The notes beneath the pieces were generated by a model. The model worked only from the letters and a program-made list of their open reading frames with translations, had not been told where the DNA came from and did no database searches. DNA of 48,130 bases, filler included, from Jimgerdemannia flammicorona (lineage: Eukaryota): the NCBI GenBank assembly GCA_003990765.1. It is 2 parts of 2 records of this genome, joined end to end, with 100 filler letters (N's around TTAATTAATTAA, not from the genome) between each part and the next. Parts side by side here need not be neighbours in the genome. Positions count along the whole stretch, not along the records: positions 1 to 24,017 come from RBNJ01001032.1; 1 more part is not named here. The stretch is one strand, 5' to 3'. The position numbers were made by a program, and so were the translations under genes. Shown here one piece after another: positions 7,742 to 46,368 of the stretch. How positions within the stretch are numbered: the first letter of the stretch is position 1; every line of letters begins with the position of its first letter.

Positions 7742-10700
7742 TCAACGACTCCCGCATCCAACGAACACAAAGGGCGCCCATAATTCAGGCTCCGAACGGC
7801 ATTCTTCCATTACCGTCAACATTGCACGCTGCAAAGCGGTCGCATAATCCATCTCACGGTCAAAAAGCACGACCTTCCAATATTCCACCATGATCTTCTT
7901 AGACCAGAGGTCACTCACATTCCAAAGTGATACGACAACCCGAGGTACTCCAGCGTCGCGAAACGCCTTAGTGAACCCATTTACTCCCTCCATCGTGTTC
8001 CATCCTTTGCCAGTACCACAGGCGCTGAGAACGACCTGCTTGACATTGCTGAGGGGTAGGTTGCATATTTCCTTGGCCCATAATAGATCTTGAAATGGTT
8101 TGAATTCTTGGACGCTATGTTTTTCGGGGCTCAACACAAGAGCTCCCCTGAGCGTGTTACCCTCACCAATGGGTTCGAACACGTCCAGGCTGTCGACGGT
8201 GCCATGGCATGCAAAATGTACGTAATCCGCGGAGATAATGGATTCCACCACCATGGTTTTTGTTGCGGTCGCTCTTGTGAGCAGGACATTCGACGAGGTG
8301 ACCGATGCCTGCTGATCGGAAGACTTGGATGAAGCCAAGGAGAAGAGGCCGTGCACCATCATGGCTTCGATCTCAGCGTGGTGGAGATTGTCGTATCGGA
8401 GAGGGAATTTGAATTCGTGGTATGGCGGGATGATAGGGTTACCCACAACCAAGGAACGGAGAATCGTTTGTGCTGGCGGTTGTGACATCGCCTGACGTAT
8501 CGTCTGATGCAGGGACTTTAGAGACGTAGAAATGGAAACGGCATATCTCTCCAACAAGTATTGATTCTTGGGCTTATCGAACAAGGCCGCGAAGGGGACT
8601 GTAGCGAGATTTCCCGAGGGGACGATAATTAGTCGTTTCGATAGCCGTCCTCCTTCCGATTGCAGGTATCCCTCAATAGGCCGGATGAGAACGTTGTACA
8701 GTTGACTCAGAGAGTTAAGGCAATCTTCCTTGTTATCATCGGCGGAACCGGAATTTCCTCTCAGGAGCGAATTTCCGAAGGAAAATATAACGCTCTGTAG
8801 CGTTTTTTTGAGTGTTTTCTGGACCTTAATAAATCGAAATTGAATTGGCTCGCCAGGTGATGGAGGGATAATCCAACAATGAAGCGGACTGTCGTGGTCA
8901 TCATACGTTCGGCTTCCTCCGCCCCAATAGACGACAATATAGGCCCCTTCGGATTGCGCGTCTTCTCGGTATTGTTGGATATGCGCGGCGTAGGAATTGA
9001 GAACGTCATCGGATTCACTATCTTTACCCAATGCCTCGAGATGCCGATATTTTTCGGAGAGAACCAGCGCCTCCTCTATTTGCTTTCGGTGAACCAAAAT
9101 ATCGACATGCAGTGATCCTATCACCGGGTTGGGGTACCAGCAACCAGACTCAAACAAAGATTTATCGAACTGTGCGTAGAGTCTCTTCTCGATAAACAAT
9201 CCTTTTTGCAAGACAGTGTCCACGAACGGTTGCGAGTAAAGCTTGCACCGGAGGATGGAGACAAGTGCCCTCCCGTATAAAATTCGTAACTCATCGTAAT
9301 CATTGGTGTCGGTTGACTCGGTGGCGACCGATAATATGTCAAGCCTCTCAGCCATCAACGACTTCCGCTTTGCCTCGGGTAACGCCGGCAATGCTTGTGA
9401 GATCATTTGAAAAAGAGCGACCTTGTTAATGCTGGATTGAATGTCTGTAATAAGATCACCCCTGTTTCCGAAGTTCACCGCGATTTCTTTTGCTTTGTCG
9501 TATTCCCCAATTGCAAAACCCACTGTCTCAAGTGTCTTCCGCAGATCCTGCCTTTGGAATTCCTGGTGAACGAGCTTGCTGTATATATTCCCCAGAGCTC
9601 TCCGCGTTCGAAATACTATTATAAAATGCAAAGGGTCGTCCAGCTCCAAACAGCACTCCAATACCTGACTATACCATCTGACTGCCTCGTCCCATCGTCC
9701 CAAACGAAGGCTTGCCTTCCCAAGGTTCATCAACGCCACCGGTCTGTGGCTGAGTCTCTCCGCTTCTGGCAACAACGAAACCGGGATTTTTTCGAGAGCA
9801 ATATAATGTTCATAAGACTCCCGAACATGCTCCAAGTTGTATTCGCATTCCGCCATACTTTTGAACAGATTGAACAAACAGATTTGCCGTGCTCTATCGT
9901 GGGTCGCTTCAGTTCCATTATTGCCTGCGGGTTCATCAAGCATAGTTTCCATTTGTTCATTGTCTTGGTTGAACCATTCCAAGACTTGGCGGAAGGTCTC
10001 CAAAGCTTTCTCAAAATTGCCAAGGACGTGTTGTGATTCTCCAACGTTAAAGTAAAGTTCCCCTGCCCGCCCAGGTAGACCACAACCCACCATAAGGGCT
10101 TTGCCAAACTCCATAATCTTCGTCTCAATTGCGAAGTAAATGTGTAGGATATTGAGGGGACGATCCTTCATATCGATGAATGCAGTCTCCACTGTGGTGA
10201 TAAATCGATGAAGGTTGACAATTAATGTATCCTGCAAAGCTTCGCCCTCAAATAACTGCGATAATTCAACTGAACGGAGAAGCCTCTGGAGAGTATCAGC
10301 GAAATCCTGCATCGCGCTGCGCAGAGCAATTATGCACACGCTCTCCGCAGCCAAACGAGTTTGGAGTGAAATGTCAGCGTTTCCATCAAAGGAGGCGAGT
10401 GTGGTGTCAACGTCGTCCAGCCGAGATTTCAATTGCTCCAAGGCAGTGGCGCAGTTTACCGCAACCGAGTCCATTGTTGTTGCTTTCCTCGCTTCTTTCA
10501 CTTGATTGTAAATGCTCGTGTGCAAGTCGCGGGATTTCGTTTCTTCCGCTGTTGGTGGGAAATTCCAATAGAGCCATGCGCGATGCGGCATTTGTTCAGA
10601 TTGGGCGTCGTCTTGAAAGCTTTGTTTCACTGTTAAGGTTCGAGTATTTGTTATGGTCATGATTGAAGTGAAAGTATTAAACCTGACATAATCAACTAAT

Positions 10701-11330
10701 GCCACGTACCTTTTTCCACAGCCGCTCTGAATGTCTCCAACGAGCATTGGTTCATTATTGCTGCCAATTCGGTGGATTGTTGCGAAATAAATTCCGTCGG
10801 CCACCACGTCGATCTTAGTTGCGGAAACTGCTGTTTCAGCACTTCGCTATACGCTTCGCTATCCACAAATCCTGCGGCATGTCCACCGTCACTGGTCGAC
10901 GAAATTATGGGGTTTTGATCGTTTTGGATGCATTCTCGAAGCTTTCCCCAGTAGACTCTCATCTGGTGCCTACAGAGCAATTCGCCAGCCCATTGCACGA
11001 TCCAGTCGAGGATATCAACACCTTCGAGTTTTTGTTCAGCTGCGCGTTGTAGAGGAAAATCATCGCCGCAAGGCTTGCCTATTTCCCAAGGTGCGTTCCA
11101 ATATAATGTGTAATCTTCGAGGGCTTTCTCAATACCAAAAAGAAAAAGCGGACATAGTCATCGTGAGTGACTGAGTAACAGAGTGCATTCGCATCAGCTT
11201 GCACAGAACGCGTACCTGTCGGTTCAAACCCTAAGTGTCTAACAACTAAATTCTTGAGTTCAAGTGGTTCGAACGCGAAGGACGTTGGTTGAGGTTCCTC
11301 ACCATGTTCTTGATCTTGAAGCACGGACAT
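7742..11330 (-). CDS. TPR-CHAT (caspase-like clan CD cysteine protease), about 1135-1138 aa, 3 exons: 11330-11216, 11123(or 11114)-10710, 10629-7742
   Basis: CHAT motifs LIIVPSGNLATVPFAAL, YVHFACHG (catalytic His), VVLSACGTG (catalytic Cys), GVPRVVVSLWNVSD and WAPFVFVG. TPR-like repeats include GELYFNVGESQHVLGNFEKALETF and ALMNLGKASLRLGRWDEAVRWY. Two phase-1 GT-AG introns (GTACGC..AAG; GTACGT..TAACAG) join ORFs 11079-11369, 10696-10998 and 7742-10807 in frame. Confidence 0.92.
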
Positions 11331-11806
11331 TGCATTCACAATTCGATTTAAACCATGGACCCAGATCAATTTGGTTTTTAAGGCGATTACCCCATTGTCG
11401 TGCTATACCTGACCATTAATCATGTGCTCTTTTTGCTCCGCAGACATAAAGCATAAGCATGTTCACATGATAGGTATATAATTAGGGCGCACATTATTAG
11501 TATATAGGTTGACTAATATTTGCCCCACGGAGCGCAAACAAAGGGAGGTCTCACACGGCCTTAAAAAAACAAGCTTGGCCAATGAGTGTTGAGTGTAGTG
11601 TAGATAGTACTGGGTGTTTCCGAAAATCATTGTCGTCCGAAATCATGATCATTCGTCACAATTAACAACCGGTTTATGCTTAGCATTATCACTGCCAAAT
11701 TTGGAAAGATCAGATCACCAAAAGTAGGGTTTGTGTAATCAGAGTAGGTGATGGCAAGGAATGTAAAATCTGCGCGTTTATTCATCTTTCCTACTCACAA
11801 GCAATC
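11331..11806. promoter_or_regulatory. Putative bidirectional promoter between TPR-CHAT and the 300-aa gene
   Basis: 476-bp non-coding interval between two divergent start codons, with TATA-like tatataa/tatata near 11475-11505. Function is inferred from geometry only. Confidence 0.45.
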
Positions 11807-12709
11807 ATGAAAGTATATTTGAAGGAGTCTGAGCACACGCTCTCTCCAGATGAAAGCATTGCATTGGTGACACTGAAGTCCGTTCTGCATGCCAGCCCGT
11901 CATCAGAAGCCTTGGTGCAATCCTGCAATACGGAGGACGAAGCCGATGTCGTCGTTTTTTGCCAAGGCGAGCTCGCCGGAACACCGCCTCTGAAGCGCAA
12001 TGCCCAATTCGTCCTGACCTATGGTTTGCAGCAAGGCAAGATCAGTTTTCCTTGCGAAGACATGAATTTGCAAGGTGCGATTCGAGCCATCGATAGCCTT
12101 TGGCGTTTGGCCCGGCTTCAAGACCTTCGAAACCTACGTGCAACCCTGGGCAGCAGCCCCAACCTTGGTGTCGATTTGTTGATCCAGGAAAACGTAAATA
12201 GCGTATGGAAGGCCACCAAACAACACATAAAAGATGGACAAGAAATCCAATGCCGTTTCAAATGTTCAACGAATCTACCACAAAACGTCGAAGCCACTGT
12301 CCTTCTCATCAAGGAAGACCAGCAAATCGTTCAGGTACTGGGAAACGGCGGTTTAACAATGCATCCGAACACTGTAATCACCAACAAACTGAAGGTCGAG
12401 CTGTCTCAAGATTTTCCGAAATACTTTCAAAAGGCCCATCCCGAAGACAAGATCCCAAAACCGAAATGGACTTTTCTTTTGCTTGTCTGCGAGGGGCATG
12501 GTACGGTTGGTAAATGGCTGCAAGACGCATATCGATCACACAGATACGGCACCATTCCCAATTTGCATAAACAGCGAACAGTGTGGTTGATAAATAAAGG
12601 TGTACCAGTCACTTCAGGCGAGACATTGGCGAACGAAACTCCGCCGGATTCATTTGTACGTTGGTTGTCCATAAAGGAAGTAACCTTGACGGTCAAACAG
12701 CGACAATGA
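11807..12709 (+). CDS. 300-aa intronless protein; tentatively caspase C-terminal/DUF4384-like beta-sandwich without catalytic domain
   Basis: Clean ATG-to-stop ORF (atcATG context). AIDSLWRLARLQDLRN followed by IKDGQEIQCRFKCSTNLPQNVEATVLLIKEDQQIVQVLG and WTFLLLVC recalls the helix plus DUF4384-type strands found C-terminal to C14 domains in bacterial and fungal caspase-like proteins. No HG/C dyad context is evident. The CDS call is strong; the product call is weak. Confidence 0.7.
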   Translation: MKVYLKESEHTLSPDESIALVTLKSVLHASPSSEALVQSCNTEDEADVVVFCQGELAGTPPLKRNAQFVLTYGLQQGKISFPCEDMNLQGAIRAIDSLWRLARLQDLRNLRATLGSSPNLGVDLLIQENVNSVWKATKQHIKDGQEIQCRFKCSTNLPQNVEATVLLIKEDQQIVQVLGNGGLTMHPNTVITNKLKVELSQDFPKYFQKAHPEDKIPKPKWTFLLLVCEGHGTVGKWLQDAYRSHRYGTIPNLHKQRTVWLINKGVPVTSGETLANETPPDSFVRWLSIKEVTLTVKQRQ

Positions 12710-13455
12710 GCTGTTTTGGATACATATTATTTCAAATTCTATTATTGTATGCACGACTAGTATCGGTTGTAACCTGATGTACTGAAAAGTATCTTTGAGA
12801 CATGCTGTACACTGCGCTCTCCATCGGAAAAATAAAAATTTAAGGGCATGCAACTCACGAAAAAGCTTCGTTGTGGTGAGTTGGAATGCAATCGTTATTA
12901 TTTTTTATTTCGTCCGGGATAGCTATGGCAACTCAACGCAATAGGGACGTTATCAATTAATCCAGTTAGTTTCCCACAAGCTTTGATCTTGTGGAAAAAA
13001 AATTTAATACAAAGCTTTGATAAGATATTAGCGGCCCATTTCGATTGTTGAACGTGATACAATTGTTCCCTAGATTCCCGTCTCTGGATGCAAATTGCAT
13101 AATAGTGACAATAATCCTTCCTATGTGCACCTATAACAAGTTTACCTACCAAACAAAAGTCGCGGCGTGTACCTCAACCACAGGTCAGGTCCATAAATGA
13201 ATCATGACCCTGGCTATTCCCATGCAGCATTGTTTGTTTGATGGTGGAAGCCGCAGTAAAGAGCTTCTCCATTCAAAGAATCTGCATGACTCGGGAATTC
13301 TTATCTCTCGGTGTGCGACACCTCCATCATTCAATGCCAGCCTTGCTTGAACCCCCACTTGTCCCCCTTCCATTTCCGACCCCTGCAATGAATGTTTCCA
13401 CAATCCTGTTAAGAGGTCCGTCTGGTTCACTGCCATATTAAACTCCCCAACCACT

Positions 13456-14164
13456 ATTGACGGCATGACTTCAAAACAAAATCAAGCCAGTGTAGATTTG
13501 GGATCCAAATATTTTCGTCCAAAATCTGGTGATTGAAACCAGGTCATCTTTGATAGCGACACATCTGTTGCAGGGTTGTTGATCTATTGACTGGATGATC
13601 TGTAACATCTACGTAACAACAATATGACGTAAGTAACACTCGAGTCAATTGAAACGTTGTTGTTCAGTAATATATGCCAACTTTAATAACGGGACAACAA
13701 TCGTGCGAAACAAGCGTTTATTTGTCCGTATGACTGTTGCTCACATAGCCCCGTCCCAAATGACTGGTTGCGGCTTCGCTTTCCAGGCTTCCCACGATGC
13801 CTTTTCTCAGTAAAATCCTTAGCAAAAGCATCCATATAGATCCAAAAATTTCTTTCCCCTGTGAAACCATCACAATGACTAATCCCATTGACGGCATGAC
13901 TTAAGATTGAAATCTTTGATAGTGACACGTGTTGCAAAGCTGTTGGTCTATTGACTGGATGATCTGTAACCTCTACGTAACCAATAATATGACGTAAGTA
14001 ACACTTGAGACAATTGAAGTTTTGTTCAGTAATGTGTGCCAACTTTAATAACAGGACAACAATTGTGCGAAACAAACATGGGGCAAGATCCAGTAAGGAA
14101 ACATGTGGCGTTTATGTGTCCGTATGACTGTTGCTTGCATAGCCCCGTCCCGAAAGACCAGTTG
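13456..14164 (+). repeat. Imperfect direct duplication of about 280-315 bp (13456-13770 and 13887-14164) upstream of the gasdermin-like gene
   Basis: Shared blocks attgacggcatgactt, tctattgactggatgatctgtaac, tatgacgtaagtaacact, tgccaactttaataac, gtccgtatgactgttgct and catagccccgtccc. Confidence 0.9.
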
Positions 14165-14284
14165 ACTTAGATAACGTTTTAGAACTTCAACTCGCCGTCA
14201 CCCTTCAGTTCAATCAGCCTGACATAAATACAATACTGGTTCACCAACTGGATTTCATCCGCTTTTAATATCGAATGCATCATC

Positions 14285-15388
14285 ATGAACCTGACCAAAT
14301 ACCTCGTCTCAAGCGTCAACGAATTTCATCCGCTCCTGTTCAATGCCAATTTTATTGAGGTCAACAGTCAGTCTAGTCAGTTTCTCAAGGTCGGCGACTT
14401 TGGGCACATCGACTTCCGCACCGGTATATTTCGGTACCATGGCAACATCATCGACAGAGATGGGGGAGGTCGTCATGGTTTTCCAGCCTACGAATTCCGC
14501 GAACAGCGCTCCGTCAGCAATGACATGAATATTGACCTCAAGGAAGGGATTGATTTCCAATTGGACGCTACTGCATCATCAGAACTTCCGACTGTGTCCG
14601 CCAATGTCGGGTACACTATCGAGAAAAACAAAGCCTTCCACTTACATACCAATGGCGGGGTTCGTGAGGAGTCGATCGGGAGCGAGGACCATTGGCTGAA
14701 GCTCGCAGACTACATGGAGAAATTTGGCGAGTACTTTCGCTGCCACCCAGAGTTCACCCTCGGTGTGTACGCGCAGCATTACCCAGTAGTTACAAAGGTG
14801 CTACGATTCAAATCATTCCGGGTTGTGGCGGCGATCCAAAATTCGTCCAAGTTGGCCGCAACCTTCAACCTGTCCCCACCAACAATTATCAATGTCAACG
14901 CACAGACCAGCAGCCATTTTAATAAGTCAGGCTTCCGTATCATGGTCCTTCAGAAGGAGGCCAGCGAGGATTTCTTGTATCCTGTGCTCTATGAGCTTCG
15001 ACGGCTTCCGATTAAGGGTATGGGACAGCAAAAACCCGGAGAAGCTATGGAAACCGTCACGCTGAAGACAAAGACATACTTACGACTAGTGAAAGTCTTG
15101 GGCTTGAACGTGAGGAGGGCAGACCAGAGAGGAACATGGCAACCTGATGCTGTCAACATTAATGGTATTGCCATGATGCCACCTGAGACAACAGTCAGAC
15201 CAAACACGATATATCCTGAAGGTTATTTCTCTGACGATGCTGATGCAAATGATGAAAATGAAAGTCATAACGAAAATGATGACAACGAAACAGATGAGGA
15301 TGAGGATGAAGAAGAGGACAGTGGCGATGCAACTGATGATGAAGAGCCTTTGAACGAACATTTGAACGCTGCATTCTTCCATGACTAA
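14285..15388 (+). CDS. Gasdermin-like pore-forming protein, 367 aa, intronless
   Basis: N-terminal LKVGDFGHIDFRTGIFRYHGNI. First alternating-polarity hairpin region about aa 75-125, then a helical segment, YPVVTKVLRFKSFRV (cf. gasdermin yvvT-vl-ak strand), a second hairpin about aa 180-225, and closing YPVLYELRRL (cf. vfayrl-kl). This roughly 240-aa core is followed by a linker and a D/E-rich tail. It lies next to a CHAT protease, as is typical for microbial gasdermins. Confidence 0.75.
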   Translation: MNLTKYLVSSVNEFHPLLFNANFIEVNSQSSQFLKVGDFGHIDFRTGIFRYHGNIIDRDGGGRHGFPAYEFREQRSVSNDMNIDLKEGIDFQLDATASSELPTVSANVGYTIEKNKAFHLHTNGGVREESIGSEDHWLKLADYMEKFGEYFRCHPEFTLGVYAQHYPVVTKVLRFKSFRVVAAIQNSSKLAATFNLSPPTIINVNAQTSSHFNKSGFRIMVLQKEASEDFLYPVLYELRRLPIKGMGQQKPGEAMETVTLKTKTYLRLVKVLGLNVRRADQRGTWQPDAVNINGIAMMPPETTVRPNTIYPEGYFSDDADANDENESHNENDDNETDEDEDEEEDSGDATDDEEPLNEHLNAAFFHD

Positions 15389-15869
15389 TTAGTATATTTA
15401 GCACTTTTGCTTAGCAAGAGCTAAGAGATAGCAGCTTAAGTACCTTTTCCAGCCATCGTGATTGACAATTATGATGTATATATACATGTTTCAGTAACTT
15501 TATCATTGAAACAGAAGTATACATATTATGATAAATGATCGAGATCGTCATGTACATATAGAAGTCTATGCAAGTGTGCAAAGTTCATCTATCAATTCAG
15601 ATAGAGGCTCCTATAATATATGAAATGATATTTATCTTACGGCCTATTCAGATTAGAACCTTATTGGACCTCATATTGAGACGGCCACTTTTAGGAGAAA
15701 CTAACTTTTTAAAAGTGGTCACGTGCAGTTCATGTCATATTCTCTTGATGGTCACTCACACTCGTGACGATCATATGAGGCGCAGTTTTCTAAGTGTAAT
15801 TGGCCGAAGATAAAATACGGAAACCCAAAGAAATATATGATGACCCTGTCCTCGAACAATGCCTAGTTG

Positions 15870-18800
15870 GGTATGACGGGAACCCGAATGGGCTCCTCAC
15901 CCTCTGCATAAGGAGCACCCACTCTTATCCCCTCAACTTGCTAGCTCACTATAGACACTTAGTGAAATCTACCAGACCTATTCTCCTCCAGTTCACTAGT
16001 AATGTCAACACTTTTCAGGCAATCTGACTCTACTGCCCTGCCTATATTCAGATCCTGGCCATCTTCAATAACCTCTTGACCACTTATGTTGGGAAGTCTA
16101 AGTAATATTCTAAATACCACAACTTAAGCAGTCAATATATATTCAACACTATTACCTATTTAGCCAGGAAGATATATTGACCACTCCACTCCAGAAGAAT
16201 ATTTCTCTACTCAACCAGCCACTGCTTCTACTATCTCTGAAGCAACAGAGAGTCATATACCAAGAAATAGATTCCTAGATAGCAAACTACCTCTCCTACT
16301 AGAATAACTATTTCAATTATATCTCCACCTACTATTCCTCTACTTAATATCAGAGTCTTATATTTATTCCAATTCAGCTTAGCATCAGAGTATCTCTCAT
16401 ACCATTCCACTACTCTCTATAGTACTACTATGTCTTTTACAGAGCTCAGTCTAATCACTATATTATCAGCAAAGGCTCTTACTTTCTAATTTACTTCCAA
16501 AATATTCAACCCCCCATCTTGTATCTAATCCTATATAATAAAAGCTCCAGGGAGAGAGTATAAAAAATTAATAACAGCAGATCCCCTTATATCACTCTTC
16601 TGCTCAGAGAGAATATAATTCTCCTATACTTATTTACCAAAATAGTTATTTAGCTCTCATCCAACAGACCGATCAAAGATTGCTAAAATCCAGAGAGAAC
16701 TCCCATATACTTTAATACTCTCTCCAGCTATACTCACTAGATCTTATTATATTCTTTTTCTAATCCAGAAATACAAACTGACCATTTACTTCTATAGTAT
16801 ATTCATATACTTATATTATCTCAACTTACTTCTGATGAATTCTCTCTACTTAATCTCCAGTACTTACTGAGTCACTTCTTGTAACCTAACTACTAGTATC
16901 TTTGTAACTAGCTTGTAATCTATATCCAGAAGTATAATTGGCCTCCAGTTCTTTCACTTCTCTTTTTTTCTCTTATTCTTATATAATAAAGCAATAAGAC
17001 TCAGATATTGCCTCCTAATCTATATTCCTGAGTTAATAATCTTATCACACATCTATGTCATCTTCTTTAAAACTAACTCAACATCTGCTATCCTCTTCCA
17101 GAAATCTCACAGTAGACTATCCTCTCTCAGAGCTATTCTGAGAATCATTATTATCAATACCCTATATATCTTCTCTTCTCAGACAGATACTTCAAGATCA
17201 CCTAAGCTCTCTGCTAGGTCCAGATACCAATTCTCCAAATGTTGTTCAATATCCAGCATATCCTTTCTATCTTTCTCTTTATTCTATAGTTGTCCTCACT
17301 ATGAACTCAATTGACTCAAGATCACCAGAGTTCTAACTACTATCTCTCCTATCTTATCTAGTACTCTTTCCCACCAATATCTCACCCTCTTTATCTGAAA
17401 GAGTCTCAATAAGAACTTTTAGATCTCTTTTTCTCTTTTATATCATATCACTATAGCTGAGCTATCATATTCTTTACCCATAAATCTTTCTCCTGCCTCA
17501 GTATCTCCTTCAGCTCCTCTACTTCATATCAGATCTACTGTACTCTCCAATCTTTCTCTTTCCTATCATTCAATAGATCAGCTCATGTTAATAATAACTT
17601 CTCTAATCTCTGAGAAGCTCACCTTAACCTATTCTTCTTCTGAGCATCTCTCACCCTCTCTACCTTCCTCTAGAACTATTGAGCAACTAATTTCAGATAT
17701 TACTATTGATCTTCAATCTCCAGCCTCTTTGCCCTCTAACTAAGAATCCTGGAGCTAATGTCTACTATCTATGTATTCTATAAAGAAGACTCTCTCAGTA
17801 AGGAGATTTAGGTACTAATGTCTAGATCCTTCTCCACTACTCCTGAATCTTCCACAATCTATCAGACTCTAATGATCTAACCATGGGTACCAAACTATCT
17901 TCAAAGATTTCCAAACATTCTCTCCTCTTTTTTTTTTTTTTTATTTTACAGACTCAGAGTTCTACAGATTTTTATTGAAAGAGAACCTAGACTATATAGG
18001 CCAAAATCCTCCCCCACCACCCATCAAGCACTGCTCCCCCATTAACCTAGACTAACTATTATCCAGCAGCTTGACTATACTAGATACAGCAGGGTCTATA
18101 TTGGCCCATATCTCATTCTGTATACTATGTTCTCCCTACTACCAGGGAGAACCCAGCCATATACCAATGACCAAAAGTATATACCCAAGACCCCAATATA
18201 TATATAAGGCTATATCTGAGTCAAATAGAATAGCCTCTGTCACCCTAAAGAGAATGACAGACAAAGAAAAAACTCTCATCAAAGTATATTATGGTGGATA
18301 GAGTCTAGTTCTCCCAGATGAGATAAGTAGAGAACTTATATATGAGGTGGGAGGAGACCTCCAATACTTCACTACTCAAGTCTATAGGCCTTGATCAGAT
18401 TGCTATATCAGCTCTCAGTTCCAGTTGAGTGTAGTCAAGATGTCTGAAATAGATAGCCTTGAGCCCCCCAACTCTCCCCAATGACTGAGACCCAATCTGC
18501 TAAATTATCAAAAGAAGCTGAGAGTGATACCTACTACCTAACTACTCCACACCAATCAAAAGGCCCCACTGAAGCAGTATCTGCCCCAGCCCTAATGACC
18601 ACCCCCAGCCTGATACCTTACTGATTTACTGTAATTGCCCTTCTACCTATCTATCTACAACAACCATCTCCCCTCCTATCCTGACAATATCTAAAAAACA
18701 GTCATCTATGCCAGAACCATGCTCACCAGAAAGCTCACCAAAGCCAGAGAGCCTCACTACAGACACTGAGGACCTGCAGGTAACTTACACTGAGTACTTA

Positions 18801-20690
18801 ATGTCTAAAATCAGCTGACTCCTTATGTAACCCATAATGTACCAAGACAATATCTTATTAGCTATAGCAAATAGAAGAAGGCACTATACTAAAATAAGTA
18901 TACTCTAGATGTAGCTGAAGGTACTAGAATCTACAAAAAAGTAGAGAAGACACCAATCTAATACTGATAAATAGGCAACTCAATATTATTGCCCTCCTCT
19001 CACTATACTCCTATAGACACAGCAAACCAACCTGAGGTAGAGGGAGTAATAATAGGGGAAAGAGAACTTGGGAGATCACTTACCAAACCTTGTGACTGGT
19101 AAGGTAGCAGTGAAAAGAGTACAAACATTCTCTCCTTAGTACTCTACAGTCAGGATCCAGTCAATTCTAGAATCCAATCCTGCTACCCAGTAGATATAAA
19201 CCCTGTGATCTCCATCTAAGTTATCCTGTATTCACTAGAGAACCCAGCTTTTTAACCTCTTCTCAGTCTTCTATTCTCCTACTCTTATTAGCCATCTCCT
19301 TCCCTCCATCAGTCCTATCTAACTATCTATCATATATTATGTTAAAGTCTTCACTCAAGTAGTTAATTTCAGTCTCTACTATAGTACCTATATCTTATAG
19401 ACCTCTTATCCACTCCACCTGCTTCCTCCTTTCTGCTGAACAATAATAGGACCCAATAGTTAAAGAGCTTTAGTCTGGTCTCCTCTATACTCTCTATATT
19501 ACTCTACTCCCCTAGTGTCTAATATCTCCAATATCTCTCTTGTTCTTCTAAATCAATATGTCTATCTGACCCTACCAAACTGCTATCTCTCTCCATTCCT
19601 TTGTCCAATTTAGCATATTCAAGTTCTCATCACATCTAATATTCTATAGTAAAAACAGATTAGCATCTAACCTCTTTAATCAGTAGAAAATATTCTACTA
19701 TCTCACTGCACCTCATAATCTATTGATATTTAAAAAAAAAAAATTAGTTATACTATTCATATTGAATAATATTTTTTGAAGACCAGTCACCTACTTTATA
19801 ATTCCATGCTTATTATATCACTAACAATATTCAGATTTCTCTCTACCTTAAGCTCATCTACCTCTCTCTACTGAGTATCTAGTACTTTCAAGATCTTCTA
19901 ATAGTTCTCACTATCTATAGACTCTATATTAGACTAGTACTTCTTATATACTATCTGTCACTTCTTCAATCTCTTCTTAGATTTCCACAGATAAGTCATA
20001 TAGTCATTTATAATGACCAGAAGTACTGCCTCCCTGTTATCATCTACCTTATATTTCTCTGCCCCTAATAAGTCCACCAATAGCTTATTTCAAAACTTCT
20101 ATACTACCTCTTCTTCTTACAGGATCTCACTTTAATGTCTTTTACTAATTACCTAAAAATCTACCTCATCTAACTCATCTGCAGCAATATTCATCAATGC
20201 CTTCTATAACTACCTTTTCTCTCCTATAGTCTCATTAATATCTAGAACTATCTCCTGCTCTCCAACCCCCTGATCTCTCTCAGCATTTGTTCTTACTGAC
20301 TTATCTCAGTTCTCCTCTATCACATCCTACAGCTTATCAGTTCTCCCCCCTCCTGTGAGCACCCCATACTATACTTGGGCCTCCTTTATCATCACCTCAT
20401 TCTCTATCACCACACTCTGTCTAGAGTCTCCACTCTTTTCCAGAGTTACTATGAGAGTCTCTCTCTTCTTTTCTGCTCAAGTACTCACCCTTGATCTACC
20501 TCTTTCAGTAGTATTTTTCTTCTCTACTCTCTCTTCCAGATTCACCAATAAGTCTTTCTGATACTGCCTCTCTTATGCTCTCTCTCAGGCAGCCTAATCT
20601 AGTTATACTTACTTGCTATTTATAATCTTTATCACTGTCTTAGCCTTGAACTTCTTCTAGAATAGCTGTCTCTTCTCCACTACTTCAGCC
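15870..20690 (-). mobile_element. L1/Tx1-type LINE relic (APE endonuclease + RT), heavily mutated, apparently truncated at both ends
   Basis: Minus-strand relic motifs: NWRPIILLDIDYKLVTKIL (about 16895-16950), FSLSRRVI*GDLLLLIFYTLSLELLL (cf. RGVRQGDPLSP...EPL, about 16540-16612), and KVRAFADN (YADD-like, about 16462-16486). Endonuclease relics: SEDFN (about 19341-19356), SRIDWIL (about 19151-19171) and PWLDH (SDH-like, about 17873-17887). Boundaries are approximate. Confidence 0.85.
17927..19121 (-). mobile_element. SINE-like retroelement, copy 3, inserted in the LINE endonuclease domain
   Basis: Poly-T left end. Exact 15-bp TSD caaacattctctcct at 17912-17926 and 19122-19136. It separates the SRID and SDH-like motifs of the LINE. 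Confidence 0.9.
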
Positions 20691-24181: not shown

Positions 24182-26530
24182 ATGTTCAAAAACATCAACA
24201 AGAATGAAGCTGACCCGCTTCGCAGGGCCCGTCCTGTCTCCTCTGAATACGACGAGGAAGTCGCATACGAACGTACTCCCCACCATCACCAGAGGTACCC
24301 CATCTCCCATCTCGTTGTTCTTGCCAGACCGTAGCTTTCCTCTTCCCCTTAAACCGACGCCTTCCTCATCCCCTCCGCATCTAGCAGGAACCCTGCCTCT
24401 CTGCCCACTAGAGAGTATGGCTCGTCTGCTAGTCTCTTGGTAATATCTCACCGCCGTTTTCAATCAAATCAAACCACTCCGTCCATTTTCCTCACTTTTC
24501 CGCTCACCGAACCAACCAACCAAACCATCGCTCACCTCAACACCATCTCCAGATCTCCGACGAACAACGCCGCCGCTACCTTGAGAAGCACTTCTTCCAG
24601 GCCAGTACCTCTCCGTCTACCTCACCCGTCGACCTCAACCCACCACCCCGCGACGATTTCAGGCGCTCTCGCTCGCCTGTGGATCGGAGCGTGTCCCCAA
24701 CCTACTCAAACCCGGCGCACTCTCCCGTCGACCGGAGCGTCTCCCAGTCGTATGACAAGTACGACACTTACGCCCGTGATTCACTCATCGACCCGCAGGC
24801 TAGCGACGAGCAGTACTTCTACGCTGACGATTATTCAGGTACTTTGGGAATCGAGCGCAGGAACGAGAACGAGGATACACGCATTCGCGCGGTATGGTTT
24901 GTGTGCTTGTTTATTATTATTATTTTTATTCATCATCTTCATGTTAAATCCTGCAGAACCACCTGTGAAAGCGGCTCCGTACCAAGGTCGTCATCTTATT
25001 GCCAAGACCCAGCCGCAGCAGGAGCCCTCGCCCGTCTCGCCTGTCACCCCGAGTCGTAGCTACCTCCATGACGACGACGGTATTATGGATTCAGAGATGC
25101 GAGGCTCGCGTGCGGCGACGCCGATGCCCACAGGTGATCAACAGTACCAGCAGCAGCAGCAGCAGTACCAGCAGCAGCAGCAGTACCAGCAGCAGCAGTA
25201 TCGACAGCAGCAGCAGCAGCACCAGTACCAACAGCACCAGTACACGGACTCGGCGCCTACACGGTACCAGCAACCGCCTCAACCAGCCGCGGTGCGTTAC
25301 GAACAGCCCAGTCAGCAGCACATGTCCATGACAGCCGAGGTCATCTATGGCACCTCGCCAACCCACTCACAAGAGTTGCCTCAGAGGTCCTCCTCCCGCA
25401 ACCAGCACTCTTCCCCCCACCACGCCCACCACGCGTCCTCCTCCATCTCTTCCTGGAACCAGCCCGATCGTCACCCCTCGCAACGCCAGCAGCCCCCGCC
25501 TTCCCTCGGCCCCACCCCGCCCAACTCCTCCTCCTCTCGCCATGCGCCCCTGACCCCACTCGTCATCCCCCCGACCCCCGTCCGTTCGACCTCGTCCCCC
25601 ATCGTAAACCCGAGCGACCTCCCGCGTGGATTCAATCCGTCCCCTTACTCGCCCCCTTCGTCTAATCCACAATCTCCGGCTACCACTAGCCCGCTCGCCC
25701 CACCACCAGTACCGACAGGCAATTCCCACTCGACCCCGATGCGCGAGAAGCCATCAGCGTCGTCGAGCAAGTCGAAAAAGGAGGACTTCACGCCTACAAG
25801 CGAGGCCGAGGCCAACGTGGCCAAGGCTATCAAGTACCACGAGGCCGGGAAGCTCGAGGAAGCCACCAAGTACTTCAGACTTGCTGCGGAGCAGGATTCG
25901 CCGTTGGGCATGTTCCTGTATGGGATCTCGCTGAGGCACGGTTGGGTAAGTGTCCTTTGTGACTGCAAAAAAATGCGTTTGACACACTATCGATCCTTAC
26001 GCATTGCTGACCTCCATCACCTCGTCGTTCTTCTCGACACATAGGGCTGCGCGCCAAACCCCCACCTCGCCTTCCAGTATCTCCAAAAGTCGGCCGAGTT
26101 TGCCGTCGTCGATCTCAACAACCTCAAGACGGTCAACACGTCCGCGAGCAAGGGTGAACTCGTTATGGCCATCTACGAGCTCGGCGTTTCCTTCCGCCAC
26201 GGCTGGGGTGTGCCAAAGAACAAACAGACCGCCGCGTACTACTTTGAGATTGCGGCGAATCTGGTGAGATTTTGTGGCCTGTTGTTTTCGTTGTCTGCTT
26301 TGATTCGACGTTATGAGTTTGATTCTAACCATCTACCGCGTCATTCGCGAATCTCCAAACTACAGGGCGATCCCGATGCCCAGAACGACCTGGCCCACTG
26401 CTTCTATCACGGTCACGGCGTCAAGAAAGACATGTTTAAAGCCGCTAAATACTATCGCCTTGCGGCGGCACAGGGCCATGGGATCATGGGCAACTCTTGG
26501 ATCTTCAAGGAGAAATACAACGTCGCCTAA
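24182..26530 (+). CDS. Sel1-like repeat protein of the Dsf2/Nif1-like fungal family; exons 24182-24294, 24388-24439, 24553-24838, 24957-25945, 26045-26263, 26366-26530
   Basis: Phase-consistent GT-AG model. Low-complexity S/P/Q-rich N-terminus (polyQ about 25140-25245). C-terminal SLRs MFLYGISLRHGWGC, AIYELGVSFRHGWGVPKN and AQNDLAHCFYHGHGVKKD, with family-type ending GNSWIFKEKY. The first two exons are less certain. Confidence 0.85.
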
Positions 26531-31058: not shown

Positions 31059-32735
31059 TCAATCATCGCTCTCAGGCTCCTCAAAGATCTTTTCGGCAAC
31101 GACGTACTTGTCTTCGTACTTGACCAATCTCTTTACGCATGCGACGGTCGACGGCAGGGTCAGGAATAACCAAGCCGCGACCGGTAACCATACATAATCA
31201 AATGCGTTCTTCCAGGTACGCGAGTCGGCCTTGAGGAGGAGCTTGCGGTCAACGGTGCGGTGCAGGTTCTCGTAGACGGCAAGCATGCCGAACAAAGGCA
31301 TAGGCAGCAGGACGGTGATAATTTTGACGAGGTTCCAAAGGGTGGCGTAAAATTCAGAGTTGAGGATCGGATTTTCGGAGGGGGTAACGTACGACAGGAG
31401 TGGATGTGGTGGAAACAAGAGAAACTGCATCACGGGCACGGCAGCGAACATGAGCCAGCCAGAGGTGCAAGGAATCATGTGCGCCTCAAGGACGTGGAAG
31501 CAGACCACGATCTTGTCAAACACGTTGGCGAAGGAGCTGTAAAGGCTCTGCTTGTTGGAATTGAGGAAGCCAGATTTCGTGTCGAGGCTGCTCTGGTGTT
31601 TCGCGGTGAAAGTGCCCTTGAGGGTGTAGGTGACATCGGCGACGCCGTTCATGTGGCGGGTGGCCTGCACGTATCGTGCATAAAGGTTTGACACGTATCC
31701 AGTCGTCTGCACGTTGGTGAGATTGATGGGAACGAAAATGGGGACCGAGCGCGCCAAACCGTTCGTCTTAAAGAAGCATTTGAGCCACATATGCATATCC
31801 TCGCCGACAGAATCGGCATCCACGTCCCAGTACCCCACTCGCTCGGCCAAGACCATACTCAGGCTGTAAGTGGAGCATGGGAAGGCAAGGCCTCGGCTGT
31901 TGCTCAAGTTCTGCATTACCATGATCGACCATGTGGTATCCGTGACACGCACAGCCGCAGGAACGTCCATCGCATTGCGGGAGAAGAAGATCGGGGGAGA
32001 GCACAGAGTGGTATAAGGATCCTCGGCCTGGCTCAGAGCTTTCTCGACCTTTAACACACAGAGAAAAGAATATGAAAGGCAAATAAATAAATAAAAATAA
32101 AAATAACCTCCACACCCGCCCCTACCCCAAAACCGGATTTATGCCACCAACAGTTTCAATACCATTTTTCCCAAGCAGAAACTCCACAAATACCAGTTCC
32201 TCTCTCCCCCCACCCACCAAAAAAATCAATGTACTATCCTCACCTCCTTTATATACAATTCAGGGATAGCCGAATCTGAATCCGTAACAGTGAAGACGAC
32301 CCTGCGCTTCTCCACATTGCGATGGATCATGTCCTGGGCAGCGGCCTTTGCGGCGTATGCAACATTGCTGCCCTTGCCGCGGGCTTCGCCAGGGATACCG
32401 GACGGGTGAACGGTGACGATGAAGTGGAGAAATTGCTTGGCGAAGTAGTCTTGCAGGCTTTGGGCTTTGAACTCGTGATTCGACTCAGAGGCCTCCATGG
32501 CCAGGATGATGACGTAATTGGTTTGCGCGTTCCTGAAAAAATGGGCATAGAATGAGTACGCAAGTTCTGTGGTGCCATAGATATCCCCGATAGAATACCC
32601 TTGCTATTCAGTCGTCTTCCGAGTAACCAAGAATCACAGATTCCCCTCCATCCATTTGACCTTTCTTGATTGCGTATGCTGTCCAGAAACTCATCCGAAA
32701 AAAAAAACTTCCTCGCACCGAATATATCACTTCCT

Positions 32736-34085: not shown

Positions 34086-37000
34086 ATGGCTCTATCCAGC
34101 CCACAAGATTACCAAACTGACTTGCTCCAAAAGTTTGAGCAGAGGGATAGGAGGGAACATGTTTTTACCATGTTCATAGATGCGCGTAAGTACCGTCCTA
34201 GCGCCACACTATGAAGGGTGTCAGAGATGCCAAACACCAAAGGAAGAATGAAACGATAGACTCTTGTGAGAGACCAAAGCGAAAGCATCATTTCTCGCGG
34301 TTGTTCCATCCCTCCTCCCAAAGAATCTTCTTTACCCTTTTGTTGATGACCTCTCATCTCTTGCAGACAACAGAATAGTCCAACAGAATATTGCCCTGAC
34401 ACAGCAAAATGAAATCCTCGAAAACACCGCAAGGGCCATGAAGGAGGATAATGAGAAGTTGAACACGGAGATTTCGCTGGCGAGAGAGCAAGGGTGAGTG
34501 TGGGGGGCTGAATTCAGCTTGTTTGGCAACCACGGAACGTCCCGTCCCGTAACGTATCATTGTCACCATTGTCACCTCAATTTGTAGGACCCCTTTGAAT
34601 CAGCAAAGGACTGCTGAGTTGGAGTCACAGATTCAGAATCTCAAGGAAGAACTCAGCGACCTCTACAGGACTCAGAGCCAGAATGCGCAGAGGCTTGTGG
34701 ATATGAACGAGGAGCTAAGGAAGAGGGAAGAACGCGAGAAGAGGCATCTAGAGGAGTAAGTGGTCATCATTTCTTGGCGTGTACATGGACGCTAGATATC
34801 AGATGATGTAGAAGCGCGATGGGTGTTTATGATTCCTTGACCTACTTAACTCCTCTTCCCCTTCGACAGGATACAATCGCTAACTGAAAATAGCAAAGTT
34901 CTCACGGACCAAAACGAGGCGCAGGCAGTTCTGCTGCAGACAAAGTCCAACACAATTCAGGTATGGATTGCTGGTTTACTCTACTCCCTCAATTTTTTTT
35001 TTTTTTTTTTTTTTGCATTGAGAGTGTTGGCACACCATTGATCTTTCGACCCGTCGGTTCTAAACAGCTTCTACACGATGAGCTGGCCACTGTCCAGTTG
35101 GAGCTGTTGAAGACGGAGGAGCGCATGAAGGAATTGGAGAAAGAGAATGGCCAGTTGCTCCAGCGATGGCTCAAGAAAATGAACGAAGAAGTCGAGAAGG
35201 TGAACCAGGCTAACACCATTTACGAAAGGTTGGTATTAATAAAGAAATATCTTCTTGAAGAAGGCCGGAAGTGGGGATTAGAACGGGCTAGCTTGCAATA
35301 TCCAAGTGATTGTGGCCTTTCGGAAAATAACAAGTGTTCATAACCGGACTTCTTTTCGAATTTGAAATTAGCGCAATGGAACAGGCTAGAACTACCGAGC
35401 AGATGGTATTCCGCGGGGCTGGCGCGAACCCTGTCGATGCCGCTCGTCGTCAGAATTCGAAAGCGGACATCTATTCCCCTCTAGTGGTTTTGCCTACGAC
35501 AGCACCCAAGAGACTGGTACGTGGATTCAGTCTCTCTTGTCTCTTCTTTACGCCAAGTTATTCCGTAATCCATGCATCAATCTCTTATATATATAACCCA
35601 TATAGACAGCGCACGACTCCGAGATCCACACCATACAGGTTTCGACGTCCGGCAACCTTTTTGCCACCGGCTCAAGCGACAAGAAGGTCAAGGTGTTTGA
35701 TGCACGAACGGGTACGCTATTATCAACAGCTACAGTATACGTGCATTTTTCCGCTCACTGTAACCCAGTAGGATTCTCGTTCTTTGTGTTGAATACATTT
35801 TTCTACACGTCTTTTTGCATACATGGACGCGTCATTTCTATATATTCTAGGTAACCCTACCCAAACGTTGACCGGGTCCCTTCTATCCATCATGTGTGTC
35901 GCATTCAACGCCAAGGATGACATGGTGCTGGGGGCATCGAATGACAATGCTACGAGGCTTTGGGATTTGGCGACTGGTAGACTCAGGGTACGATATCTAA
36001 TTCCTGCCGTGTGTGTAATTGGAGGATCGAGATGGCCGGGGCTGTTGATTAAGACAGTATGGATGATATCCCATCATCCGTTTTTCTGACACAATTTGTT
36101 TATAGCACACATTAACCGGTCACATAGGGAAGGTATACACAGCAAGATTTAATGGCGATTCTACCAAAGTGGTATGTGAGAAATTTTTCTTTAGTTGACA
36201 AAACCATTTCACCCAATGTAGCTTACATCTTGATGGAATATTTATTAAGATATCGGGAAGTCACGATAGAACAATCAAAGTATGGGATCTGCAGAAAGGA
36301 TATTGTGAGTGTTTTGAAGCACTTTGTAATCTATTACATTTCAATACAAGGCGTGCACTAACTCTTGAAAGCTCTCTTTGAACCTTTCTTGCTTTGCACA
36401 AAGGCACACGAACCATGTTCAGCTTCTCAAGCTGTAACGACTTATGTCTTGTTGACGAAGCTGGGTAAGCAATCGCTCAGGGCAGTGCCCTGCAGCAAAC
36501 AACGCTGATCACCGACATACCGTTGACGCTGACCTTCGTTCCCGCCTTCATCTGGTTTCGCACCAGCTCGACCATTGCGAGCGGCCATCTCGATAACAAT
36601 CTCCGGTTGTGGGACGTGCGAACAGGGAATGCGATTAAGGAGCTGACGGGAATTCACTTGGGTCAGATTACGTCGCTGTCTGTTTCGCCTGGTAAGTAGG
36701 ACAGAATAAAGAATAATAACGTTCATGTTATGCTGGAAGGTATTCGTGGTATCCACGTTATGATAAAATAGTTCACTCGTATGCGACTTACCTCTCGACT
36801 TTTTGGCTACCGATCACAGATGGATCAAAAATCCTGACCAACTCGCGAGACAACACTTTAAAGTTGATTGATCTACGTATGTACGAAGTCGTCAGTACAT
36901 TCCAGTAAGTATTTCCTTTCTATCTTCCTTGCCGCATTTCTTCTAATTTGAAATCTCGTGTCCTTTGCGTACCAGTTGTATTTTAACCATGGTCGACTGT

Positions 37001-41150: not shown

Positions 41151-43079
41151 TTAATCCTCTCCGGCAGAACCGGAGGCACCAGAAGGTGACGAAAATGCAA
41201 AACGAGAGCGATGGATTGAAGAAGAAACAGAAGGAAGACGCGAACGAGCAATTAGAGGGCGTCGGGAAAGAGAAGAAAGTCCATGGCATGAAAGAGAAGA
41301 GTGCAGGACGGTATCAGGGCGTTGAGCAACCCAGCGAGCACGATCAAATGGTACGACGAGAATTGGGGGTGGGAAAGAAGAGGGGGTACAGAGAGGGTAA
41401 GGGGGGAGAGAGGGAAGGGAGGGGGGATAAAGAGGAGAGAGAAGAGTAGAGCGAACAACAGACCATTCAACAGAAGCAAGCAGATCACGAACGATAGAAA
41501 TAGGGTAGGCACGACGATGGACCACGAAGTTGCCAAGAACCTGAACAGCAGACACCCAATCAGAACGACGGGAGCAGCAAAGTGCAAGACGATGAGCCTC
41601 ACCCCGAACATATTCAAGAAGAGTGCGACGAGGATGGTTGGACAAGAAGTCAGGGAACTGTTGGGAACGGGAAAAATGAGAATAAACAACAGTTCGGAAA
41701 GGAGAAAGAGAAATGGAAAGGTCCAAAAAGGGGATACTAGTCGTACCACACACCCAGGTAATAGAATGGTGGGAAGGGTAGATGCCCAGGAACACACTAG
41801 GGATATTAACACCAGCAACAGCGAAGACAATAAAGTCATCAATGTATCGGCGAAAGAAGATATCCCCAGCCCGGAATGCAATGGAAAGAGGTGAAGTAAT
41901 ATCACGTAACGCATGCAATTCGTGGGCCAGGCCAACGAGGTTGGCAAGGGTGGGGGCACAATTCGTACCCATGGCAATACCAGAAGTCTGGTGAAAGGAG
42001 CCAAGGGCCGACTCAAAATAATTGGAGCCGTAGACGAGGAGCGTAAGCTCAACAATGGAAGCCAGCGAAACCGGGGAATCCAAAGAAAAAACCAAGGAAC
42101 CCAAGAAGTGAAGGCAATTATCGATCTCATCAAAACGAATAGCAGTATAGAAGGAAGAGAAGTCACCAGAGGCCAAATGGGAAAAACTATAAACAGGCAC
42201 AATGGTGGAGCAGAGAAGGGCGAGCTCCTGAGTATCACAAAGAATAGTATACTCAGGCCCAAGATGGTGTTGTAAGAGAGCCATCCAGGAGAGAAAGAAG
42301 CGGGATAACCACTTCGAAATCTCGGTAGTAGGAGAACTGTAAGTAGCCATAATAGGACGCCAAGCCAAAATAGGCTTGTGAACTTTAGAAAGAGCATAGA
42401 AAACCAGAAGAGAAATATCCGGAGAGGACAAAGAGTCCTGGAAGAAGTTAAAAATGGGGTTCGTGAATGGGGAATCCGAAAGCGATCTAGCATGAGCCAG
42501 AGAAACCCGGAGAAGAGTGAGAACCTCATCCAATCCAAGAGCACTAGGCTCGTAAGCCGTGGCTCGAAGGAGGGCAGAAAGGCCATCAAGGTAGAGCAAC
42601 TTAGGAATAAGTGCAAAACTCTGATTCTTATCAGTGACTGTGAGCAAGTGCATAGGCAATTGCTTGACCGATTTAAGTGCGGTATGCACGGCATGGTCCG
42701 AAACCAAGCAAGAGCGAGCTCGTCCAGGAACAGACAGTGAGCAAGCCATGTCGAGGAATACGCAGTGTGAAGAGACATTGGGAGGGGGGACCCAATCGCT
42801 GGGAACAAAATAGCGAGAGGGCATCTCACCACGATCTTGAAAGAAAATGGCAAGGTCAAGAGCATGACGAAAACGTGTTAGACGAGCCAGATCAGTGAAG
42901 GAGAATTGTGAGGGAGTCGCAGGAAAAACAAAGCGAGGACCCAAGGATAAGGCAAAGACTTGAAGGGGAGAAAGGGGGCAGTCAGCCAAAGAAAAAGGAG
43001 GAGACAAAAGTGTTCCAAGAGAAGAGTAAACCCGAAAATTCAGAACAAGCAACTGGGAAAGGCAAAGGGGGGACAACAT
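41151..43079 (-). CDS. Penelope-like reverse transcriptase, 642 aa, open frame
   Basis: LSLGPRF, TDKN, FYALSKVHK...WRPI, SGDFSSFYTAI, NYF...FHQTSGIAMGTNCAPTLANL, RYIDD, IPFLDL, SNHP...GEAHRL...YP. No GIY-YIG motif at either end. Some conserved residues are mutated (ALSK versus ALPK in the second copy), so it may be inactive. Confidence 0.88.
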   Translation of the reverse strand: MLSPLCLSQLLVLNFRVYSSLGTLLSPPFSLADCPLSPLQVFALSLGPRFVFPATPSQFSFTDLARLTRFRHALDLAIFFQDRGEMPSRYFVPSDWVPPPNVSSHCVFLDMACSLSVPGRARSCLVSDHAVHTALKSVKQLPMHLLTVTDKNQSFALIPKLLYLDGLSALLRATAYEPSALGLDEVLTLLRVSLAHARSLSDSPFTNPIFNFFQDSLSSPDISLLVFYALSKVHKPILAWRPIMATYSSPTTEISKWLSRFFLSWMALLQHHLGPEYTILCDTQELALLCSTIVPVYSFSHLASGDFSSFYTAIRFDEIDNCLHFLGSLVFSLDSPVSLASIVELTLLVYGSNYFESALGSFHQTSGIAMGTNCAPTLANLVGLAHELHALRDITSPLSIAFRAGDIFFRRYIDDFIVFAVAGVNIPSVFLGIYPSHHSITWVCGTTSIPFLDLSISLSPFRTVVYSHFSRSQQFPDFLSNHPRRTLLEYVRGEAHRLALCCSRRSDWVSAVQVLGNFVVHRRAYPISIVRDLLASVEWSVVRSTLLSPLYPPSLPSLPPYPLCTPSSFPPPILVVPFDRARWVAQRPDTVLHSSLSCHGLSSLSRRPLIARSRLPSVSSSIHRSRFAFSSPSGASGSAGED

Positions 43080-43165
43080 GAGGAACTACTCAGGGTGCAC
43101 CAGAAGCGACGACGGAATCCGAGAAGGGATGGGAACACTGGGGGAGAACTATGCCAGGGGGAAGT

Positions 43166-46282: not shown

Positions 46283-46368
46283 ACTTCCCCCTGGCATGGT
46301 TCTCCCCCAGTGTCCCCATCCCTTCTTGGATTCCATCGTCGCTTCTGGTGCACCCTGAGTAGTTCCTC

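Follow-up and report, generated by a model that had tools for sequence, protein, structure and literature searches.

In a 48,130-nucleotide stretch of DNA from Jimgerdemannia flammicorona (assembly GCA_003990765.1), which we call the window and which joins two parts of the genome through 100 filler letters (positions 1 to 24,017 come from record RBNJ01001032.1), we analyzed an open reading frame (ORF) of 300 amino acids at positions 11807 to 12709 of the plus strand, referred to below as the target. It lies head-to-head with a gene for a protease that carries tetratricopeptide repeats (TPR) and a CHAT domain. Our results support the target as a real-looking gene that stands alone and is non-catalytic, and they point tentatively, a little short of an even call, to a lineage-specific partner that docks on the divergently transcribed TPR-CHAT protease. 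This proposal draws on a single genome, a language-model lead and one model of the complex; binding in cells and the direction of its effect, which might be that of a brake, an adaptor or a substrate, are inferred. The arrangement given in the first-pass annotation, an uninterrupted ORF of 300 amino acids and a 476-bp divergent region shared with the protease, was confirmed by the ORF scan and by reading of the sequence, the target running from ATG to TGA without interruption. The positions are as follows.

11807 to 12709, plus strand: target gene, an uninterrupted ORF of 300 amino acids, stop codon included (ORF scan, coding signature, homologue searches without a match).
7742 to 11330, minus strand: TPR-CHAT protease gene, with a large exon at 7742-10807 and predicted upstream exons at about 10706-11078 and 11216-11330, with short introns between them (Pfam; splice sites read from the sequence).
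11331 to 11806, unstranded: divergent intergenic region of 476 bp between both start codons (sequence; the protease ATG is a prediction).

The docking proposal comes from an ESMFold2 complex of the whole target with the C-terminal 692 residues encoded by the protease exon, which include part of the TPR region and the CHAT domain, computed without alignments. Three runs gave interface scores (ipSAE, interaction prediction score from aligned errors) of 0.61, 0.61 and 0.60, while the controls gave 0.21 and 0.00 when the partner was replaced and 0.00 when the protease was replaced, which places the pair 0.40 above the best of the three controls. Of 78 solved complexes, 51 attain the mark used for this score, as do 2 of 108 mismatched pairs; in its eukaryotic calibration the figures are 39 of the 65 solved pairs that have no similar complex in older structures and 2 of the 126 unrelated pairs. 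The runs share at least 45% of their contacts, and the predicted local distance difference test (pLDDT) of the partner is at least 62 (62-63 for the target chain in the complex). The first-pass annotation had proposed the target as a possible inhibitor, adaptor or decoy of the protease and had suggested modelling both together, and that check came out in favor of an interaction (0.61 against 0.21 for the best control). The model supports, rather than demonstrates, binding of the target to this C-terminal piece of the protease.

The confident contacts of the target fall in two segments, P14, I18, V21, T22, S25, V26 and A29 in the first, and L88, Q89, A91, I92, I95, D96 and W99 in the second. 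On the protease side they are positions 484-495, L513, 638-653 and 669-673 of the modelled piece, equivalent to residues 813-824, 842, 967-982 and 998-1002 of the exon ORF, and they correspond to one helix before the catalytic His and to two C-terminal helices. In both chains, the contact residues are arranged on i/i+3/i+4/i+7 helix faces. The segments involved are listed here together with the stretch that holds the dyad motifs.

11846 to 11893, plus strand: helix A, predicted amphipathic, target residues 14-29, modelled contact with the CHAT domain (interface list).
12068 to 12103, plus strand: start of the long helix B, target residues 88-99, in the modelled interface (interface list; a helix at 88-115 is also present in the low-confidence AlphaFold2 model).
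8336 to 8371, minus strand: CHAT helix contacted by the target in the model, exon-ORF residues 813-824, piece 484-495 (interface list).
7802 to 7909, minus strand: two C-terminal CHAT helices contacted in the model, exon-ORF residues 967-982 and 998-1002, piece 638-653 and 669-673 (interface list).
8018 to 8206, minus strand: stretch with the dyad motifs, the FACHG His at exon-ORF H868 and the SACGTG Cys at C930, both outside the confident contacts (sequence and model contact list).
12209 to 12541, plus strand: beta-rich region of the target, about residues 135-245, with language-model features nearest to DUF4384 clusters and outside the confident interface (language-model features; low-confidence AlphaFold2 strand pattern, pLDDT below 50).

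The FACHG and SACGTG motifs are intact in the protease, and we take their His and Cys to be the CHAT catalytic dyad. Neither the His (piece 539) nor the Cys (piece 601) is among the confident contacts, a list in which a residue that is not named counts as uncertain, and the beta-rich half of the target also lies outside the confident interface. Because the modelled contacts are off the dyad and are made by amphipathic helices, an exosite-type regulator or a pseudosubstrate is favored over a plug of the active site.

The target itself is very probably a real coding sequence. Its run of 300 codons compares with a maximum stop-free run of 185 among 300 shuffles of the local 3.3 kb (11000-14284), and its GC content at codon positions one, two and three (0.55/0.373/0.52) resembles that of the CHAT exon (0.535/0.379/0.533) and of the next ORF downstream (0.548/0.349/0.548). 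When the codon log-likelihood is trained on these two neighbors, the annotated frame has the highest value at the locus (+0.163 bit per codon); of the remaining frames, one antisense frame is positive (+0.034) and four are negative, down to -0.273. The language-model recognition value of the target is 2696, above a mark of 2300 that is reached by 91 of 100 proteins of known families and by 9 of 100 shuffled sequences. A check of the flanks revealed neither direct nor inverted repeats around the target, and therefore nothing suggests a mobile element. Contigs from two sequencing runs, whose RNA type we guessed, cover parts of the CHAT exon and positions 14150-15500 and leave the target uncovered, from which we draw no conclusion. 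As for the parts of the protein, the low-confidence secondary structure from AlphaFold2 consists of a long helix at residues 88-115 followed by approximately six strands and one helix.

The absence of an obvious catalytic dyad, described in the first-pass annotation, holds: the target has no protease domain, no caspase-type dyad motif and no Pfam match at E<=10. In particular, PF00656 and PF12770 are absent from it at that threshold, and the target is accordingly not a protease. The Pfam result applies to the whole protein and to two sub-fragments of it, with the proviso that HMMER's filters remove the majority of matches weaker than about E 0.1, and a very weak match may escape. PADLOC has no family for the target, NCBIfam gave a match at chance level (E 0.042), and among the sequences of the Protein Data Bank (PDB) there is nothing below E 0.84. 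A word-indexed search of 5.8 billion clusters yielded 1379 candidates, none of which passed, and an exhaustive phmmer search of 1.84 billion representative proteins returned no credible homologue. Its sole match (E 3.4e-05) was to a 2506-residue bacterial repeat protein, along a 20-residue stretch with a repeated short motif, and we judged it spurious. No homologues were found in genome, metagenome or viral contigs, nor in plasmids, where tblastn was used. The target is a sequence orphan with no detectable homologue.

The identity of the beta-rich half was analyzed separately. The first-pass annotation had likened the target to DUF4384 and to the region C-terminal to C14 domains, quoting motifs that do occur in the translated target, at about residues 98-109 and 142-176. 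For the whole target, the nearest cluster of language-model features scored 0.94, with 210 of 256 features shared, 13 of 30 matches in the family set and DUF4384 on 24% of its members. For residues 120-300, considering named clusters only, the top value was 0.95, with 215 of 256 features, 21 of 30 matches and DUF4384 on 13% of the members. In this tool, a family that is present on less than half of the members of a cluster is a lead only, and its calibration covers whole proteins and not parts of them. The likeness to DUF4384 is a lead at the level of language-model features, whose top clusters carry this domain, and it is lost in every profile test, beginning with PF14326 (curated cut-off of 27 bits), which has no match in the target at E<=10. 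With one kind of evidence in its favor, we consider the DUF4384-likeness of the target a roughly even matter.

In five cyanobacterial plasmids, PF14326 gave three matches, in two of the five records, and every one of them was inside a caspase-family ORF. In all three cases, the caspase-family gene with its C-terminal DUF4384 comes directly after a CHAT or TPR-CHAT gene with which it shares the strand, at spacings of 91 nt, 117 nt and one 4-nt overlap.

AP018204.1 519 to 5287, same strand: CHAT and caspase-DUF4384 gene pair (Pfam).
NC_010631.1 84422 to 89213, same strand: CHAT and caspase-DUF4384 gene pair (Pfam).
NC_010631.1 132368 to 137989, same strand: CHAT and caspase-DUF4384 gene pair (Pfam).

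This looks like a recurrent two-protease pair, in a sample that is small and biased because the records were chosen through their CHAT matches. The target resembles these cyanobacterial orthocaspases (PF00656 plus PF14326) in having a beta-rich domain that is close to DUF4384 by language-model features and in being adjacent to a CHAT gene, as are all three of them; it differs from them in lacking a protease domain and any detectable sequence or profile similarity.

A number of results weigh against reading the target as a docked partner, and several of them concern its ancestry. The DUF4384 reference set was built with a region-restricted homologue search, which added 120 orthocaspases, and a short-form profile search, which contributed 19 more sequences, for the most part fragments belonging to that family. 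Against a hidden Markov model (HMM) of DUF4384 alone, made from the DUF4384 columns of 114 orthocaspases and narrow in being cyanobacterial with an effective number of 0.92, the target scored -0.8 bits, a value equalled or improved by 668 of 2000 shuffles. A position-specific scoring matrix of 114 orthocaspase C-termini, with 330 positions and used in local and global modes, placed the target at z values of -1.1 to +0.7 relative to full and windowed shuffles, 200 of each per setting. An HMM of 123 orthocaspase C-termini did not report the target, and the 352 sequences that it listed out of the 501 searched were all shuffles; hhalign against these C-termini gave E 0.43. All of these profiles consist of orthocaspases from cyanobacteria and are narrow for that reason. 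The similarity proposed with the segment that lies C-terminal to C14 domains was not borne out by the matrix (z of -1.1 to +0.7) or by hhalign. BLASTP of the target against three members of the orthocaspase set gave nothing below E 1.6. A five-block collinear alignment made by eye to a 298-residue orthocaspase fragment looked convincing and failed the shuffle test.

Other points on the same side concern the gene and the model. Since no homologue was found, conservation of the target gene or of its pairing with the protease cannot be shown. AlphaFold2 without an alignment returned no usable fold for the target (mean pLDDT of 37, with no residue at 70). The score of the complex is the confidence of a model and no measurement, and 7 of 44 blindly drawn pairs of neighboring genes also reach its mark. 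The protease was cut at residue 330 of the exon ORF for the modelling, and a face that is normally covered in cis may be exposed because its N-terminal part was removed. In addition, the ORF downstream of the target, which we assume to be the “gasdermin” of the first-pass annotation, has no match in Pfam, PADLOC, NCBIfam or the PDB sequences, gasdermin profiles included, and with its gasdermin label unconfirmed the frame of a “cell-death cluster” rests on the protease alone.

These points feed a different account, in which the target is an unrelated young orphan gene that lies by chance between the protease gene and the downstream ORF, and the modelled complex is a false positive. Neighboring genes of eukaryotes are usually not linked in function, the target has no homologues, and a truncated protease was used in a test whose mark is attained by the 2 unrelated eukaryotic pairs and the 7 blind neighbor pairs mentioned above. 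This account fits poorly with a score of 0.61 that was reproduced in three runs, exceeded the best control by 0.40 and came with a coherent helix-on-helix interface; against it, too, stand the known clustering of CHAT genes with client genes in fungi and the language-model features, an independent pointer to a domain family that accompanies caspase-like proteases. We regard it as somewhat unlikely.

The downstream ORF is the source of another alternative.

14285 to 15388, plus strand: downstream ORF of 367 amino acids, beta-rich and with an acidic tail (ORF scan).

Its AlphaFold2 model has a pLDDT of 31.8, and no relatives of it were found in metagenome contigs. The contigs of the two sequencing runs span 14150-15500 without a gap, one run differing from the window at six positions. 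Between the target and this ORF, at 13456-14164 and thus close to the upstream side of the latter, there is a tandem duplication of approximately 365-395 bp in two copies, with blocks that are 82-94% identical.

According to this alternative, the target would have arisen as a partial paralogue of the downstream gasdermin-like gene and diverged, and would not be a DUF4384 protein; it would present the same docking element to the protease as a non-lytic decoy. A single BLASTP comparison aligned target residues 141-213 with residues 85-156 of the downstream ORF (12227-12445 and 14537-14752) at E 0.004 with 21 of 74 positions identical, and a Smith-Waterman score as high as the observed 51 was obtained in 10 of 2000 and in 13 of 2000 shuffles. 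Moreover, the pattern P-x-E-x(4)-V-T-L-K-[ST] is common to target residues 14-25, in the helix modelled in contact with the CHAT domain, and to residues 251-262 of the downstream ORF (11846-11881 and 15035-15070), a position after the typical length of a fungal pore-forming domain. The latter segment is the best match of target residues 10-32 in that ORF, in a post hoc comparison in which 91 of 5000 and 136 of 5000 shuffles were as good. The fungal gasdermin HET-Q1 is described as a protein of 278 amino acids with a C-terminal inhibitory peptide of 38 to 43 residues, in the part of the source available to us (PMC13475620). The relation is opposed by the extended alignment, which is not significant (z of 1.56, with 80 of 1000 shuffles as good), by hhalign, which chose a different register (E 0.17), and by the absence of similarity between the two genes at the DNA level; the p-values are uncorrected for around half a dozen pairwise comparisons. 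The downstream neighbor is itself only a putative gasdermin, and the target has no gasdermin-profile match in Pfam, PADLOC, NCBIfam or the PDB sequences. The two alignments point weakly to a decoy relation of the target with the downstream protein and are both fragile, and we find the paralogue explanation distinctly unlikely.

That the target is no functional gene but a chance or decaying ORF, or a remnant, would agree with the lack of homologues and family matches and with the low AlphaFold2 confidence, and is very unlikely given 300 codons against a shuffle maximum of 185, codon usage and a GC profile like those of its neighbors in the annotated frame, a recognition value of 2696 (above 2300), an ESMFold2 pLDDT of 62-63 and flanks free of repeats.

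Returning to the docked partner, the mechanism that we propose would be the following. The amphipathic helices at residues 14-29 and 88-99 would pack on a helical face of the CHAT domain, with the catalytic His and Cys outside the confident contacts, and the beta-rich C-terminal half (about 135-245, possibly DUF4384-like) would be left free, so that the target would behave as a docked regulator or pseudosubstrate. In one option, it would hold the protease off or compete with the downstream gasdermin-like protein for the docking face. In the other, it would be a second client, cut in the linker or in the beta domain, which would parallel the cleavage of Csx30 by Csx29. A more complete formulation, with a dedicated trans-encoded partner of a eukaryotic, probably fungal, TPR-CHAT protease that docks through helices on a non-catalytic face, bears a DUF4384-like or gasdermin-derived beta domain and serves as a decoy or brake relative to a pore-forming client, seems unlikely to us as a whole.

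Three published systems help to place this proposal, and for each of them our comparison is limited to the portions of the sources available to us. In fungi, the genes of TPR-CHAT proteases lie in clusters with those of gasdermins, which the proteases cleave, and 353 of 1,884 fungal gasdermins are near CHAT genes (PMC8851545). The CHAT domain of P. anserina Q2L-6 is formed by residues 701-1005 (PMC8851545), and that of the protease described here by residues 699-1017, which indicates a like architecture; together with the short introns of the protease gene, this points to a fungal source. As in the HET-Q2-like/HET-Q1-like clusters, a beta-rich ORF of about 300-370 amino acids is present within 10 kb, in our case on the far side of the target. 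Unlike those clusters, which are gene pairs or combine one gasdermin with two proteases (PMC8851545), the locus has a third gene in between that shares the upstream region of the protease, and, unlike the fungal HET-Q1-like partners, its downstream ORF has no gasdermin-profile match.

The second system is the type III-E CRISPR module, where the TPR-CHAT protease Csx29 cleaves Csx30. The N-terminal domain of this substrate is helical, its C-terminal domain is a beta-barrel with a hairpin where the cut is made, and one group of Csx30 C-terminal domains is DUF4384 (bioRxiv 10.1101/2022.08.17.504292). The target is likewise non-catalytic, with a predicted helical N-terminal part and a beta-rich C-terminal part, and, as is the case for this client, it is encoded beside a TPR-CHAT gene, divergently and at 476 bp. 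It differs from Csx30 in that the Csx29-Csx30 module is bacterial and RNA-guided and in that the conserved N-terminal domain of Csx30 binds Csx31 and RpoE, nothing of which was seen at this locus.

The third system is the type III-B SAVED-CHAT cascade, where PCi inhibits PCaspase and is cut by PCaspase and not by SAVED-CHAT; the name PCi was given for its predicted likeness to CI-2 serine-protease inhibitors, and no homologues were identifiable in other prokaryotes (bioRxiv 10.1101/2023.06.23.546230). The first-pass annotation had taken PCi as a DUF4384-containing precedent, a description that must be amended: in what we could consult, the preprint calls PCi CI-2-like, the word “DUF” occurs 0 times in it (bioRxiv 10.1101/2023.06.23.546230), and the DUF4384 link that we found in print concerns some Csx30 C-terminal domains. 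Like PCi, the target is a small orphan in a cluster with a caspase-like protease. It is unlike PCi, which is CI-2-like and acts on PCaspase, in that its modelled interface lists no catalytic residue, in contrast to a canonical active-site inhibitor.

The protease neighbor was characterized in the same window. Its large exon (7742 to 10807, minus strand, 1021 codons) contains CHAT PF12770 at residues 699-1017 (E 2.5e-55) in addition to TPR families. Reading of the sequence suggests two short introns, one at 11215-11079 (GTACGC donor, AG acceptor) and one whose donor, GTACGT, is near 10700; in this predicted gene model the first ATG of the protease frame is at 11330. The predicted upstream exons (10699-11330, minus strand) would encode about 160 residues with no Pfam family, which would form an N-terminal domain of the protease. 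No relatives of the CHAT domain were found in the genome contigs collection, and nothing among the PDB sequences matched it at E<=0.01.

The remainder of the window includes positions 16001-20000, where the GC content is low (0.345-0.381) and the GC skew strongly negative (-0.45, -0.34), in contrast to the parts that bear genes. Long ORFs at 41151-44442 (minus strand) and 45006-46355 (plus strand) occupy a GC-rich, skewed region, and one of them has a weak RVT_1 match (E 0.00099), below the curated cut-off; this region is probably a retroelement. No Rfam family was found in the window, and a scan for bacterial promoters and terminators, not relevant to a eukaryote, gave results at chance level. 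Gene fragments recognized by Pfam are the following.

26045 to 26527: Sel1 repeats (E 6.1e-23).
31059 to 32138: family-2 glycosyltransferase (E 1.1e-13).
34894 to 36086: ATG16-like coiled coil and, after it, a WD40 repeat (E 8.1e-12 and 6.9e-05).

The portions of the literature available to us present the protease-gasdermin pairs of fungi as systems of two genes and suppose that the protease's own repeat domain keeps it inactive (PMC8851545). A trans-acting partner of a fungal CHAT protease was not found in what we could consult on fungal gasdermins, CHAT and DUF4384, and, judging by titles or the opening of abstracts, none of the DUF4384 papers found is on fungi. Within these sources, a third gene in a fungal TPR-CHAT cluster, predicted to bind the protease, is not described and would be new with respect to the published clusters. 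If the target docks on the CHAT domain, it would offer a handle on how such proteases stay silent or reach their clients. Such docking would also mean that fast-evolving regulators that are invisible to homology searches can sit inside TPR-CHAT clusters. In the more complete formulation given above, which we consider unlikely as a whole, the locus would represent a three-component version of the fungal protease-gasdermin module, a functional counterpart of Csx29-Csx30 or of PCaspase-PCi.

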